Below are positions 3,354 through 13,636 of a DNA stretch of 17,365 nucleotides, one piece after another (position 1 is the stretch's first letter; the number at the start of each line of letters is the position of its first letter). Made by a program: the position numbers and the translations under genes. Below the pieces are notes generated by a model. It was not told where the DNA came from. It made no database searches and saw only the letters and a program-made list of their open reading frames with translations. Source of the DNA: Promethearchaeota archaeon (GTDB taxonomy: Archaea > Asgardarchaeota > Lokiarchaeia > Sigyniarchaeales > SOKP01); contig JAFGGO010000102.1 in assembly GCA_016930515.1 (NCBI GenBank), forward strand, positions 1 to 17,365, read 5' to 3'.

Positions 3354-4556
3354 ATGAATAAAAAAATCATAGCATTACTTGCGATCGTGGGGATTTGTGC
3401 GGTGAGCATTCCTCTTTCTATTTGGATAATCAGCTTGTCTTCTTCTACCACAACAAATACTCCCGAAATACCTACCATAACGAGTTATTCTCCCCGATCT
3501 TTTCTCAGAGTAAATACATCAGCCACAGAAGAGTTTAGCATCACGACTTCCTTTCCATCGGGCACGCATTTGAGCTATACATGGACCGTTAACGGTACGA
3601 ACCAATCGCTCAACGCAAGCTCCTTTCTATTCGATGCTAACGGCAAGATAAGCGAGGAGGTCTATAAAATCAAGGTTAGCGTTACTGATGGCAATGTCAT
3701 CCTTCAGCATACTTGGACCGTGCTCGTTAGCGACCATAGCGGAGGATTGATAATAGACCACGAATGTGTGGACTGGACGAGCATACCGATAGAATACATA
3801 ACGCTTGCAAAGGAGCTGAATTTCCATTACGCCCATACTTCTCACGGTGGTCAAATAACATCGGGTCTTTACGACCTTCAATCCTTGAATCCAGTCTTCA
3901 ATTTTTCATCCGGAGACCAGACTCTTCCTGATGAAAACGACACTTTATGCATCTTTGACGGTCAGGAAACGGAGGATTACATCACGCCCGATCTTTATTG
4001 GGAGACTTTTCAAGGAATAAAATATACTCAAAATGTAATTAACAATAATCTCGCCTTAAACTTATCAATGTGGAGTTGGTGTACCCAAGTAAATTATTAC
4101 TCTGCAGACTCAATCGAAGAATACTTGGAAGTGATGAACGAATTCGAACAGAACTACTCGAGCAGGGGAGTCAGGTTCATATACATGACCGGAAACTGCG
4201 ATACAGGTGACTTTTCCGAGCACGGAACTCCTGCAGATAGTGGAAATCAGAATCCTGAAGGGGGTTACCAAAGATACCTCAACAACCAGCGGATCAGGGA
4301 ATATTGCTTGCTAAACGACAAGATCTTGTTCGATTTTGGTGATATCGAGTGCTGGCTCTACGATAACGACGGAGATTTTTACGATTACAGTAATTTCAAG
4401 TACGATACGGGTAGCGAAACGATTCTGGTACCAAAAAGACACTGGCAATATAGCAACCAAGACGAAGTGGCCCATACAACGGAAAAAAACTGCGAAAACA
4501 AGGCCAAGGCGTTTTGGTGGATGTTGGCAAAGATCGTTGAGTTGAATTTGGCATAA
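3354..4556 (+). CDS. Membrane-anchored hypothetical protein: N-terminal TM, Ig/PKD-like domain, conserved HTSHGxQ/MWSWC domain (paralog 1)
   Basis: MNKK + hydrophobic helix; Ser/Thr linker; Ig-like motifs YTWTVNG and YKIKVSVTDG; C-terminal domain shared with the next two ORFs (IIDH, HYAHTSHGGQI, MWSWC, FIYMTG, IRxYCxxNDKILFDFxDIE). Confidence 0.8.
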   Translation: MNKKIIALLAIVGICAVSIPLSIWIISLSSSTTTNTPEIPTITSYSPRSFLRVNTSATEEFSITTSFPSGTHLSYTWTVNGTNQSLNASSFLFDANGKISEEVYKIKVSVTDGNVILQHTWTVLVSDHSGGLIIDHECVDWTSIPIEYITLAKELNFHYAHTSHGGQITSGLYDLQSLNPVFNFSSGDQTLPDENDTLCIFDGQETEDYITPDLYWETFQGIKYTQNVINNNLALNLSMWSWCTQVNYYSADSIEEYLEVMNEFEQNYSSRGVRFIYMTGNCDTGDFSEHGTPADSGNQNPEGGYQRYLNNQRIREYCLLNDKILFDFGDIECWLYDNDGDFYDYSNFKYDTGSETILVPKRHWQYSNQDEVAHTTEKNCENKAKAFWWMLAKIVELNLA

Positions 4557-4694
4557 ACACATTTTCAAATTTTATTTATATTTTATATTTTTTTTAATAA
4601 TATAGCTTGAAGGTGGATTTTTGCATAGGATTTATAAAAAATCGTCCATAAATAAATATGACAAGTATTAAGTATAAGGGGTTTGATTTTAGAT

Positions 4695-5570
4695 ATGAAT
4701 AAAAAAGCTATTGTAATTGTAATTATTATCGGAATAGCCGCATCCTTAGGTGGTGTTTATGCTTGGATTTTGTTCTTCAACGCAAACAATAGTAATCAAG
4801 GATCTGGTGGGAACATTAAAATCGATCATAATAGCGCCCATTTAGAAGATTTAAAAGCAATTCCAGAATCCTGGATCATAGAAGCGAAATCGAACTTGCA
4901 CGTGGTTTATTGGCATACCTCACACGGTAGCCAAGTTGTAGATGGAATGTCACCATTGGACGACTTCATGAACGGGAGCGGATTGTACACTTATAACGAC
5001 GGAGGAACCGACGGTGCGCTCGACCTGGTCGATATCAACGGTGCTGATTTAAGCGCAAATCTATACAATTTTAATGAAATCACGCGTACTTTTTTAGATG
5101 ACACAAATAACAACAATATAAATGTTGTCATGTGGTCTTGGTGCGCTTTGCACACATCTCCTGAAGAAATAGGAACATATTTATCCAACATGAGCCAATT
5201 AGAATTGGAATATCCTGGCGTATCGTTCGTGTACATGACGGGGCATCTGGACGGAACTGGGGAAGACGGCCCCGTACATGTTGCCAACCAGATGATAAGG
5301 AATTACTGCTCGGTAAACAATAAGATCCTTTACGATTTTGCCGACATCGAATCTTACGATCCCGACGATAATTACTTCCTTGATCTGGGTGCTACCGATC
5401 ATTGTGATTATGTAGGCGGTAACTGGGCGTTGGAATGGCAAAACACTCACACGATGGGAGTTCATTGGTACAGTTGTAGCTGTATTCACAGTATAGCACT
5501 TAATGGAAATATGAAAGCATATGGCGCTTGGAATCTCTTTGCAAGGTTAGCTGGTTGGTCAGGACCTTGA
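4695..5570 (+). CDS. Membrane-anchored hypothetical protein, HTSHGxQ/MWSWC family (paralog 2)
   Basis: ATG at 4695 preferred over TTG at 4683 because it gives MNKK + TM like the paralogs. Motifs IDH, IPESWIxEAK, WHTSHGSQ, MWSWC, YMTGHLDG, NKILYDFADIESYDPD, CIHS, LAGW. Confidence 0.8.
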   Translation: MNKKAIVIVIIIGIAASLGGVYAWILFFNANNSNQGSGGNIKIDHNSAHLEDLKAIPESWIIEAKSNLHVVYWHTSHGSQVVDGMSPLDDFMNGSGLYTYNDGGTDGALDLVDINGADLSANLYNFNEITRTFLDDTNNNNINVVMWSWCALHTSPEEIGTYLSNMSQLELEYPGVSFVYMTGHLDGTGEDGPVHVANQMIRNYCSVNNKILYDFADIESYDPDDNYFLDLGATDHCDYVGGNWALEWQNTHTMGVHWYSCSCIHSIALNGNMKAYGAWNLFARLAGWSGP

Positions 5571-5758
5571 GTTAATCCTTAAATTCTTTTTATTTTTTAC
5601 TAGATTTAAATATTTAACATGAAATGTTTTTATAAAGTTCTAAATATTTTATTGAATCACTTCATCAATCTAGCCCCAAAAAAAAATCTATAGTTATAAA
5701 TACGATCCATTCTCATTCATATTCAAGGTTATATTTTTGAACGGGGTACGAAATAAAC

Positions 5759-6766
5759 ATGAGTAAAAAATTAACAGCTTTTGTAATTATCGGAATAATT
5801 GCAGCCATAAGCATAAGCGTGCCGGTTTACTTCACCTTTTTCTCTCCAATAGGAACGAACATAAACACAGGAACAAATCCTGATTCAAATCCTGATTCAG
5901 ATCCTAATCCAAATCCAAATCCCAATCCATTACCTGCAGATTTAATCTTTGATCACAAGGACTTGAATATCAACAACATTCCAGAATCGTGGATTGAAGC
6001 GGCAAAGGAAATAAAATTCCATTACGCCCATACCTCTCACGGAGGACAAATTATAAACGGGTTAAGTTATGTCCAATCTGATAATGCGTTATTTAATTAT
6101 TCAAGAGGGTTCAACAACCTTCCTCTTGAAGCAAACACGTTTTGCATGTACGACGGAAACGATTATTGGTCAGGTCCAGACACGGACACTTATATAGAAC
6201 CTCCCATGTATTGGCATAGTCCAGACGGTATAAAGCACACCTACGATGTGATCGACGATAATCCTTCCATCACGCTTTCGATGTGGTGCTGGTGCTGTCA
6301 AGTCAGTTATTATCCGCAGGCGCAAATTCTGGAATATCTCGATCAACTGAATGAATTCGAGCAAAACTATTCAAGCAGGGGAGTCAGGTTCATATACATG
6401 ACCGGAAACGCTGACGATGGAGATTATCCAGAAGGTACGCCTGCCGAAGGGACTAATCAAGATCCTGAAGCGGGTTATCAAAGATACGTTAACAACGAAC
6501 TGATTCGAAATTATTGCGAGGAGAACGATAAGATCTTGTTTGATTTCGCGGATATAGAATGTTGGTTATACCACGAAAATGGAACTGCCTATGATCATAG
6601 TACTTATGATTATGGAACGGGTGATGATACGGTAGTTGTCCCGAAACGCCATTGGCAGTATAGTAATTTAGATGAAACTGCTCACACGACGCAATTGAAC
6701 TGCAAAAATAAAGCTAAAGTCTTTTGGTCAATGTTAGCAACAATCGCTGGATGGGATGGTTCCTAA
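5759..6766 (+). CDS. Membrane-anchored hypothetical protein with Asn-Pro stalk, HTSHGxQ/MWCWC family (paralog 3)
   Basis: MSKK + TM; NPDS/NP repeat linker; motifs IPESWIEAAK, HYAHTSHGGQI, MWCWC, FIYMTG, DKILFDFADIE, DETAHTT, IAGW. Confidence 0.8.
   Translation: MSKKLTAFVIIGIIAAISISVPVYFTFFSPIGTNINTGTNPDSNPDSDPNPNPNPNPLPADLIFDHKDLNINNIPESWIEAAKEIKFHYAHTSHGGQIINGLSYVQSDNALFNYSRGFNNLPLEANTFCMYDGNDYWSGPDTDTYIEPPMYWHSPDGIKHTYDVIDDNPSITLSMWCWCCQVSYYPQAQILEYLDQLNEFEQNYSSRGVRFIYMTGNADDGDYPEGTPAEGTNQDPEAGYQRYVNNELIRNYCEENDKILFDFADIECWLYHENGTAYDHSTYDYGTGDDTVVVPKRHWQYSNLDETAHTTQLNCKNKAKVFWSMLATIAGWDGS
5876..5929 (+). repeat. Intragenic tandem repeat encoding NPDS-NPDS-DP-(NP)4
   Basis: AATCCTGATTCA twice, followed by GATCCT and four AATCCN hexamers. 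Confidence 0.85.
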
Positions 6767-11268: not shown

Positions 11269-12582
11269 ATGAAATACGAAAAGTGGTTAAAAAACAAGGA
11301 ACTAGAATATCTGGAAGACACCCTGCATTTCGGAGGCATGAATGTGATCGATTTAGCAGAAAGATACGGAACACCCGTTTACATTATCAACGAACAGCTC
11401 CTGAGAAAAAGGTACAAAGAACTTAAATCGTTGTTAGATAATACTTATAAGAAAAATGAGATCCATTACGCAGTGAAAGCGAATTCAAACCTTTCAGTTC
11501 TCAGTATCTTGAACTCAGAGGGTGCGTCCTTCGATTGTTCGTCCGTAGGAGAGATTCACGCCTGTTTTAAGGCAGGAATCAAGCCAGAAAAGATATTTTA
11601 TACGGGAAACATGTTCACGAACGAGGATTTTAAATACGCAATTGAAAATAATGTCCGCATAAATTTAGATAGTGTAAGTCAGATATCGCGCTTAGCACGA
11701 ATGTACGATGGGTTGGACAACAAGAAACAAACTTTTTCAGTGCGTTTTAATCCTGAATTCGGAGCAGGTCATCATCCACACACTATCACGGGAGGGAGAA
11801 ACATCAAATTTGGTATATTAGAAGAGCAAATGGTCGAGGCATACTCTCTCGCCCGTGAATTGGGATTTGAAACTTTTGGAACCCACATGCATATAGGTTC
11901 TGGTATTATTGATGCTCAAGATTACCAAAAAGCCACAGAAAAATATCTATCGACCATAACCAGAGTTTCTGAAACACTTGGAATCTCTTTCGACTTCGTT
12001 GATTTTGGAGGTGGCCTTGGAATCCCTTATAGACCCGATCAAGACCCCCTCGATTTGCAGGCTTACAATAACATCGTCATAGATCAATTTAAGACATTAG
12101 TTAATCGAGGTACGATCGGAGAACCTACACTAAAAATCGAGCCCGGGCGATATATCGCAGGTGAAGCGAGCGTGTTGATAACCCAGATTAATACAATCAA
12201 GAATAACGGATATAAACTATTTGCTGGCGTGAATGCGGGTTTTAACACGCTCGTAAGACCTACCATGTATGGATCCTATCATCATATTGTCCCTTGTGTT
12301 AAAACTAACGGTTCGAATATTCTCTCATACGATATTGTAGGTCCTATTTGCGAGTCTGGAGACGTTCTAGGGAAAGAAAGAGGAATTACAGAGCTCAAAG
12401 AAGGAGATTATTTAGCAGTCCTCGATGCAGGAGCGTACGGATTTACCATGAGTAGCCCGTATAATTCAAGACCGAGACCTGCTGAAATACTCATTAATAT
12501 GGGGAATTCTTACCTCGTTCGGAAAGCAGAATCTTACGACGACCTTCTCGAGCTCCAAAAAATACCAGATTATTTGAAATGA
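11269..12582 (+). CDS. lysA: Diaminopimelate decarboxylase
   Basis: YGTPVY, HYAVKAN (PLP Lys), KFG, HMHIGS, DFGGGLG, IEPGR, GPICESGD, AGAYG, SPYNSRPRPAE. Confidence 0.95.
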   Translation: MKYEKWLKNKELEYLEDTLHFGGMNVIDLAERYGTPVYIINEQLLRKRYKELKSLLDNTYKKNEIHYAVKANSNLSVLSILNSEGASFDCSSVGEIHACFKAGIKPEKIFYTGNMFTNEDFKYAIENNVRINLDSVSQISRLARMYDGLDNKKQTFSVRFNPEFGAGHHPHTITGGRNIKFGILEEQMVEAYSLARELGFETFGTHMHIGSGIIDAQDYQKATEKYLSTITRVSETLGISFDFVDFGGGLGIPYRPDQDPLDLQAYNNIVIDQFKTLVNRGTIGEPTLKIEPGRYIAGEASVLITQINTIKNNGYKLFAGVNAGFNTLVRPTMYGSYHHIVPCVKTNGSNILSYDIVGPICESGDVLGKERGITELKEGDYLAVLDAGAYGFTMSSPYNSRPRPAEILINMGNSYLVRKAESYDDLLELQKIPDYLK

Positions 12583-12617
12583 AATAAACATAAATTTCAT
12601 GCTATCATTATTATATT

Positions 12618-12745
12618 AGGTCATCGGAAAAGAGATCGAACGAGGACTGGATACCCTTTATTCGTTCTCAATGAAGGAACGGCGTTATGAAATCGCCCAT
12701 GCGATTGATGATAAGACTGATCTGCACTGATCGCTTCCGTGACCT
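12618..12745 (+). ncRNA. Candidate structured small RNA, box C/D sRNA-like with kink-turn and long terminal stem
   Basis: ~47% GC (60/128 by hand count) in an AT-rich spacer. The ends pair (AGGTCA-T-CGGAA / TTCCG-TGACCT). Hairpin GAACGAG/TTCGTTC. D'-like ATGA (12687-90) + 6-bp stem AATCGC/GCGATT + C'-like ATGATAA (12708-14) + 12-nt spacer + D box CTGA (12727-30). G-U pairs favour the plus strand. Confidence 0.6.
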
Positions 12746-12814: not shown

Positions 12815-13636
12815 TCATAACCCTAAAACTTCTTTCATGCTGTATACCTTTACATCCTTAGCTTTTGCCAAGAATTTTACAGCCGTGATCGCTCCCGAAG
12901 CAAGACAATTTTGACTATGAACTTGGTGCTTGAGTTCTATACGTTCGCCATTTCCCGCATATAAAACCAAGTGATCGCCTACTATGTCGCCTGCTCGAAT
13001 AGCGTGTATTCCGATCTCCTTGCGGGCGCCTATTTCTCTCTTGTTTGGACCTTTATCCCTGCCATATTTCGCTACACTATCAATGTCCACCCCAATTGCT
13101 TCAGATATCGCCTTTCCAACAGTTAAAGCCGTCCCCGAAGGCGAATCCACTTTTCGATGGTGATGTGCCTCCACTATCTCAATGTCCCAGTCTGCCAAGT
13201 ACTTGGCGAGTTGAGCCGCCACCTCAAAAAATACATTCACACCAGTAGCCATATTGGACGATATTACTGCAGGGGTTTTCTTTTCGTTAACGAGTAAGGT
13301 AAATTCTTCTATAAACGCTCTAGAAAGCGCAGTCGTTCCTATCACGCATCGAATATTAGATTTCACGCAAATAATGCAATTTCTTTCGGTGGCATCCGCT
13401 ATCGTAAAATCAATTGCGACATCAGGTCTTGTTCTTTCAATTATTTCCTGGAGATTGTTGACGTCTTCTATCTTGATTTGATTAGAGCTTTTAATTCCCA
13501 ATAGAAGTGCAAGTTCGTTTCCGATGTTGTTAATATCGCAAGCGGCAACAACCTTTATTTCCTCGTCTTCCAAGGCGAGTCTGCTAATGAGTCTTCCCAT
13601 CGAACCCGTAGGTCCAATTATCAATAATTTAATCAT
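12815..13636 (-). CDS. dapB: 4-hydroxy-tetrahydrodipicolinate reductase
   Basis: IIGPTGSMG Rossmann motif, DVAIDFT, VIGTT, SSNMATGVN, EIVEAHHHRKVDSPSGTA, IRAGDIVGDH. Confidence 0.95.
   Translation of the reverse strand: MIKLLIIGPTGSMGRLISRLALEDEEIKVVAACDINNIGNELALLLGIKSSNQIKIEDVNNLQEIIERTRPDVAIDFTIADATERNCIICVKSNIRCVIGTTALSRAFIEEFTLLVNEKKTPAVISSNMATGVNVFFEVAAQLAKYLADWDIEIVEAHHHRKVDSPSGTALTVGKAISEAIGVDIDSVAKYGRDKGPNKREIGARKEIGIHAIRAGDIVGDHLVLYAGNGERIELKHQVHSQNCLASGAITAVKFLAKAKDVKVYSMKEVLGL

Follow-up and report, generated by a model that had tools for sequence, protein, structure and literature searches.

A conserved small RNA gene of Loki-type Asgard archaea with box C/D architecture, a predicted guide to 16S helix 34 and a candidate second 16S contact

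The locus and its RNA

The window analysed here, i.e. the whole stretch of 17,365 nucleotides of a Promethearchaeota archaeon, carries a conserved small RNA gene of Loki-type Asgard archaea between lysA (forward strand, ending at 12582) and dapB (reverse strand, ending at 12815). Both neighbours were confirmed by NCBIfam models. We are confident that the RNA of 12618-12745 belongs to the box C/D class. Its parts are given below, with the observation behind each in brackets.

11269-12582, + strand: lysA, the usual upstream neighbour, outside the RNA (TIGR01048)
12583-12597, + strand: probable promoter, A-rich BRE and TATA-like WTAAAW (motif common to 90 homologous loci)
12618-12745, + strand: box C/D small RNA gene, about 128 nt (fold, alignment, covariation, single copy, family-wide pattern)
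12618-12629, + strand: terminal helix P1, 5' strand (13 pairs in the alignment, 9 of them double-changed)
12638-12667, + strand: 5' hairpin P2, upstream of box C (8 pairs, 5 double-changed, 91% of cells paired)
12649-12655, + strand: loop motif GGAUACC in P2 (predicted pairing to 16S GGUAUCC)
12671-12677, + strand: box C, AUGAAGG (family mostly AUGAAGW)
12678-12686, + strand: C-D' spacer, 9 nt (several equally weak sites, none unique)
12687-12690, + strand: box D', AUGA (92 of 99 homologs)
12691-12706, + strand: hairpin P3 closing the C'/D' kink-turn (6 of 6 pairs double-changed; length differs between species)
12708-12714, + strand: box C', AUGAUAA (AUGA core invariant in the alignment)
12715-12726, + strand: D guide, 12 nt (core 12716-12725 identical in 94 of 99 homologs)
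12727-12730, + strand: box D, CUGA (98 of 99 homologs)
12735-12745, + strand: terminal helix P1, 3' strand (folding, covariation)
12815-13636, - strand: dapB, convergent neighbour, outside the RNA (TIGR00036)

The terminal helix, the hairpin, the boxes C, D', C' and D, the stem and the guide are all found where an earlier note on this DNA had placed them, and the GC island it described is real: the RNA stretch has 47% GC, its two flanks have 14% and 23%, and the genome as a whole has 35%. Folding of 12618-12745 gives a z-score of -2.93 (1 of 200 shuffles equally stable), and the reverse strand is on a par with it (z = -2.91). Because the reverse strand folds equally well, the strand was called from the boxes and the upstream motif and not from folding. 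The boxes occur in the order C, D', C', D; C and C' are degenerate and the AUGA cores invariant. At the sequence level, the tandem G-A/A-G of a kink-turn is present beside the helix, and the C'/D' motif is closed by the covarying P3. The C/D motif would be closed where P1 and P2 meet in a three-way junction, and not by a simple stem. All defining features of archaeal box C/D guides that can be checked in sequence are found in this RNA. Its length of 128 nt, exceeded by its relatives, lies outside the roughly 50-70 nt that are typical of archaeal box C/D sRNAs without defining them. The genes for fibrillarin and Nop5 are adjacent on contig C58 of the host, and L7Ae-family genes are encoded as well. 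Rfam, to which the earlier note had pointed for a check, returned zero matches to the RNA at gathering score; the best trace was a weak match to the C/D-box RNA sR17 (E 4.5).

Ahead of the terminal helix, 90 homologous loci share A at positions -35 to -33 (92-97%) and WTAAAA at -30 to -25, and the upstream motif in the window agrees with those of same-genus homologs. This motif is probably an archaeal BRE/TATA promoter, and its spacing would place the 5' end of the RNA near 12618-12620. The probable promoter bears on the suggestion that the element is a lysine-responsive or L7Ae-bound part of the lysA 3'-UTR which switches between two folds. Indeed, lysA precedes the RNA at 89 of 113 loci. At about 20 loci, however, a different gene takes its place, in some cases on the opposite strand, and the promoter-like motif keeps a fixed distance. 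The alternative four-way junction, also put forward in the earlier note, is possible in 1 of 99 homologs, no Rfam riboswitch model matches, and the element lies 3' of convergent genes instead of forming the 5' leader of a lysine gene. We consider such a 3'-UTR element very improbable. A SECIS-like reading of the AUGA/GA motifs was set aside by inference from the short and variable helix and the changing upstream gene.

As to gene neighbourhoods, dapF instead of lysA is found directly upstream of the RNA at the loci L004, L016, L096 and L166. Elsewhere in the window, at 3354-6766, lie three adjacent, related, membrane-anchored ORFs of 400, 295 and 335 aa, the first of them without NCBIfam match; the first and the third share blocks of 86-92% identical DNA.

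Conservation and covariation

By BLAST, clear homologs were detected in about 22 of 36 family genomes. A pattern of box C', guide and box D only matches 103 of the 134 family genomes, in which the reversed pattern, used as a control, gave zero matches. With the P2 loop added, the pattern occurs in 99 stretches among 185,579 species genomes, and 77 of the 80 titled records of these matches are archaeal, mostly from Promethearchaeota. Apart from a few bacterial chance matches, the scan of all species returned archaeal records of this RNA type only. A covariance model (R1), in which the AT-rich stem dominated, gave no matches beyond the family; the patterns reached further. No copy of the RNA was found in four near-complete or single-contig Loki genomes (G012 and the single-contig genomes G044, G050 and G055), and the RNA is therefore not universal.

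In an alignment of 25 sequences, 91.8% of the helix cells pair and 20 of the 27 pairs show double changes. This level of pairing was reached by 0 of 500 shuffles, a test that is inflated by relatedness, the aligned sequences being kin and not independent; slid controls pair at 37-53%. Since relatedness inflates the shuffle test, more weight is given to the slid control and to P1 of the window, whose sequence departs from the family consensus while its pairing is kept. All three helices (P1, P2 and P3) covary. The earlier note had looked to homologs in Asgard genomes with covarying helices, and both were found; its proposal of a box C/D guide enlarged by an additional hairpin, here in an Asgard archaeon, is borne out by the boxes and the three helices. 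For its AAUCGC/GCGAUU stem with CCAU loop, the stem stands, as it covaries, whereas its length is variable and CCAU is not conserved.

A mobile element (MITE) with terminal inverted repeats would account for the long terminal helix, and occasional tandem partial duplicates occur in relatives. Such an element should be dispersed in many copies, as the earlier note pointed out, but the host genome contains one, relatives mostly have a single, syntenic copy as well, and conservation is higher in the inner boxes than at the ends. The chance of a MITE is practically negligible. The duplicates, at L094, L095, L119, L174, L266 and L267, comprise the 3' half of the RNA without the loop hairpin; they sit about 1.1-1.5 kb from the full copy and are likely dead. 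In genus g8, a second, near-full paralogue was detected (L092:1496-1650 on the + strand and L093 on the - strand), with an intact loop and altered guide and spacer.

The D guide and helix 34 of 16S rRNA

Targets in rRNA were computed on the 16S and 23S sequences of family relatives, because the host 16S is not in the assembly and the sole host 23S fragment is probably foreign. This fragment (L043, G000:C72:828-1639) is about 70% identical to the family 23S and probably stems from a misbinned contig.

The guide core 12716-12725 forms 10 bp, one of them G-U, with 16S GCAGGUCAGU, which belongs to the 3' strand of helix 34, and this site ranks first of 4797 sites in 16S and 23S. The fifth base before box D (D+5), C12722, lies opposite the first G of CAGG in a Watson-Crick pair, and the G that the earlier note had predicted as target base is thus the base found there. 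This G has number 1197 in the alignment to E. coli that Dennis et al. 2015 (PMC4644070) provide. Duplexes of guide and 16S from the same genome reach -17 to -18.5 kcal/mol. Of 99 homologs, 98 retain the wobble U that adjoins the target; in the family member G009, it is replaced by C and the duplex with 16S becomes perfect. In a second Asgard family, f27, the guide has A against a 16S U where the Loki pair is G against C. From these computed duplexes, G1197 is very likely the target of the D guide, and the RNA most likely guides 2'-O-methylation at this position.

Other targets fared worse. The literal 12-nt D target of the earlier note is absent from the rRNAs of relatives and from the host tRNA-Cys. 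Its LSU candidate, 23S UGCAGAUC, offers 7-8 bp only, is broken in or absent from some family 23S genes and is mismatched in G009, whose guide has C. Its second candidate, the anticodon arm of tRNA-Cys, does not hold either, as the host arm and the other tRNAs found mismatch the D guide. Most tRNA genes of the host (G000) carry introns, many of them at non-canonical positions, which is why ARAGORN miscalls host anticodons.

The C-D' spacer has 9 nt with a GGCR-like core and is short and degenerate. When its targets were searched in 16S and 23S, several sites scored alike and none ranked clearly; candidates lie in 16S helices 18, 34/35 and 39 and at 23S 2503-2510, and the base variation of the spacer fits U/G partners, as at the latter site. 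The spacer is probably inactive as a guide; archaeal box C/D sRNAs often have a second guide at D', though they do not need one.

The same position is served in other organisms. The 49-nt sR32 of Pyrobaculum calidifontis (PMC4644070) has the same D guide to the helix-34 segment and the same D+5 base, a D'-C' loop of 3 nt and a perfect duplex. In contrast, the Asgard RNA measures 128 nt and has a long terminal helix as well as two hairpins, one 5' of box C and one at C'/D'; its guide duplex contains a G-U, and it carries a putative second antisense element. In eukaryotes, yeast snR56 (RF01188) as well as human U25 and plant snoR19 (RF00054), all of clan CL00049, address the same nucleotide of helix 34. 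Yeast snR56 methylates Gm1428, the human counterpart being Gm1490, and loss of snR56 raises -1 frameshifting 1.2-fold (PMC2794176). In the Rfam consensus of snR56, the guide can pair with the homologous segment of yeast. From sequence context and the standard numbering, we take yeast 1428 to be E. coli 1197. G1197 is therefore a target already known from sR32 and from eukaryotes, and the guide job itself is ordinary.

In four other Asgard families, the same guide is accompanied by another that addresses position 1051 in the 5' strand of helix 34, which is the site of yeast Gm1271/snR40 (loci L199-L204, L207-L209, L211-L216 and L256-L257).

The P2 loop and its putative contact in the 16S head

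A candidate antisense element that the earlier note had overlooked is the 10-nt loop of P2, which carries GGAUACC. When the pattern allowed C or T at the variable position, T was found in 97 of 99 matches, the other 2 being bacterial chance matches. The loci found without the loop in the pattern also carry GGAUACC, except for the truncated tandem copies. The best of 4801 rRNA sites for this loop is 16S GGUAUCC at E. coli 1081-1087, with 7 bp, all Watson-Crick. By the standard secondary structure, we take this segment to span the 3' strand of helix 36 and to run into the first part of helix 37, beside helix 34. In sequence, it lies about 110 nt from the guide target; in the 16S head, the two are adjacent.

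In the family f27, the same guide sits at D' and a hairpin comes after it. The loop of this hairpin is GGACACC in 18 of 22 genomes, and 4 of 4 f27 16S genes carry its complement GGUGUCC, a change of loop and 16S between Loki and f27 that counts as a single evolutionary event. Several f27 loops lengthen the 16S duplex to 11-13 bp. Loki-type and f27-type RNAs have the same circular order of guide, D-type box, loop hairpin and C-type box. Further variants were observed. In the single-genome locus L206 (G238:C593), which has a guide to the G1197 site, the D'-C' hairpin carries GACUUAAC, complementary to 16S 1089-1096 just beyond the loop target. The family f26 (L310-L312) has the same guide at D', then box C' and a hairpin with UGACACC, which can form 6 bp with the same 16S segment in all 3 genomes. 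The other Asgard guides to the G1197 site and that of Pyrobaculum lack the loop.

About 15 nt after D', the Rfam snR56 consensus carries GCAGAUAAA, which pairs over 9 bp with the yeast segment following the same GUGA loop, the yeast equivalent of 16S 1081-1089; 5 of 5000 shuffles match it, in a test that was not blind, as the motif was known beforehand. Compared with the Loki duplex, the register is the same and three pairs are changed on both sides (1081, 1082 and 1087). In the SNORD25 consensus, GGAUA occupies this register too, with a pairing that is not significant (469 of 5000 shuffles). Direct evidence for a contact of snR56/U25 at helix 36/37 was not found in the papers on CLASH and KARR-seq that were searched.

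The match at 1081-1087 could be due to chance, with an ordinary G1197 guide whose loop is kept for protein binding or a tertiary contact. A random 7-mer has a perfect site somewhere in 16S and 23S 25% of the time, the loop resembles that of 16S helix 24, and there is one Asgard contrast only. However, a perfect site at most 150 nt from the guide target is expected for a random 7-mer in 1.8% of cases, the base change in f27 agrees with its 16S and is accompanied by duplexes of 11-13 bp, and snR56 shows the same register with three double changes. The likeness to helix 24 is contradicted by the covariation of the closing pairs (alignment columns 47-60), on which grounds a helix-24 mimic was rejected. 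Chance is unlikely, and we regard it as likely that the GGAUACC loop pairs with 16S 1081-1087. The comparison suggests that an 'extra base-pairing' of eukaryotic style is common to the Asgard RNA and snR56.

Extra base-pairing raises methylation in yeast up to five-fold and accompanies short guides, according to van Nues et al. 2011 (PMC3116282), and snR56 is listed there among the snoRNAs with such a region. The eukaryotic element is likewise a short conserved antisense element off the D box, displayed in a loop and directed at a site near the methylated nucleotide; in yeast and human, it mostly lies right beside the target (PMC3116282), while the Asgard site is about 110 nt away. Reports on extra base-pairing in archaea and papers on Asgard C/D sRNAs were not found in the literature searched. 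The Asgard RNA looks like an archaeal case of it, with compensatory change in support.

Taken as a whole, we favour with fair confidence an account in which the RNA is an independent C/D sRNA, transcribed from its own promoter, that methylates G1197 with the loop contact as a helper. L7Ae, Nop5 and fibrillarin would bind at the two kink-turn motifs. The D guide would pair with the 3' strand of helix 34, as computed, and direct 2'-O-methylation of G1197 by the D+5 rule, and the P2 loop would pair with 1081-1087 in the adjacent arm of helix 36/37. The contact of the loop would most likely steady the wobble-bearing guide duplex or hold the 16S head open during assembly, much as extra base-pairing does in eukaryotic snoRNAs. 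The association of extra pairing with short guides in yeast is in keeping with a wobble next to the target.

Two other readings also use both 16S sites. The RNA could be an assembly chaperone that grips helix 34 and helix 36/37 and leaves G1197 unmodified. The near-invariant G-U beside the target and the short, degenerate D' spacer would suit this, and a chaperone role has been suggested for archaeal sRNAs that bridge distant strands of 16S (PMC4644070). The canonical D box, the 12-nt spacing and the Watson-Crick pair at D+5 argue for a methylation guide instead, and the same site is methylated in eukaryotes (PMC2794176), which makes a non-methylating chaperone improbable. Less credible still, and hardly to be expected, is an acetylation guide similar to snR4/U13 that loops out the CCG of helix 36 via the loop and the C-D' spacer. 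The loop site (1081-87) and a candidate spacer site (1063-71) would flank 9 nt containing this CCG, the loop-out size reported for snR4/snR45 (PMC5464676), but the spacer site is not ranked first and 2 of 5 family 16S genes carry CUG, yet the RNA is kept. The N-domain of TmcA/NAT10 (PF08351) was not found in the host (G000) and three relatives that are 92-100% complete. The acetylation reading fails because CCG is unconserved and this domain was not found in four family genomes. The four genomes are G000, G010, G029 and G031; the f27 genome G170 has the domain.

We return to the methylation guide with a second contact and its relation to eukaryotic RNAs. Against RF01188 and RF00054, the Asgard RNA gives no match above gathering score and is not a member of these families. 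In snR56/U25, the guide is at D' with the extra segment after it; in the Asgard RNA, the guide belongs to box D and the extra segment precedes box C. The circular order is the same. Circular permutation is known in archaeal C/D sRNAs from Pyrobaculum sR56/sR57, in which two guides are swapped in RNAs of about 55 nt without a hairpin-loop element (Lui et al. 2018, PMC6009581). A permuted pair of this kind is formed by the Loki-type and f27-type RNAs, with the hairpin-loop element in addition. What marks the Asgard RNA as a variant is the hairpin that precedes box C, together with the predicted second contact and the existence of a permuted relative.

Hoeppner and Poole (PMC3511168) left homology of any archaeal sRNA with a eukaryotic snoRNA undecided, since two RNAs may come to address one target by convergence. 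The predicted second contact, which has the same rRNA register in snR56 and in both Asgard families, offers an independent character on which homology can be tested. It is possible, though we hold it only tentatively and rather doubt it, that the helix-34 guide and the helix-36/37 anchor date back to an ancestor shared by Asgard archaea and eukaryotes, so that the RNA and its f27 relative would be orthologues of snR56/U25. If true, orthologues would be recognisable by a second, compensated element beyond the shared target. As a separate observation, L281:1492-1573 on the - strand (G170:C10) is a C/D-like small RNA candidate with weak matches to many eukaryotic snoRNA models.
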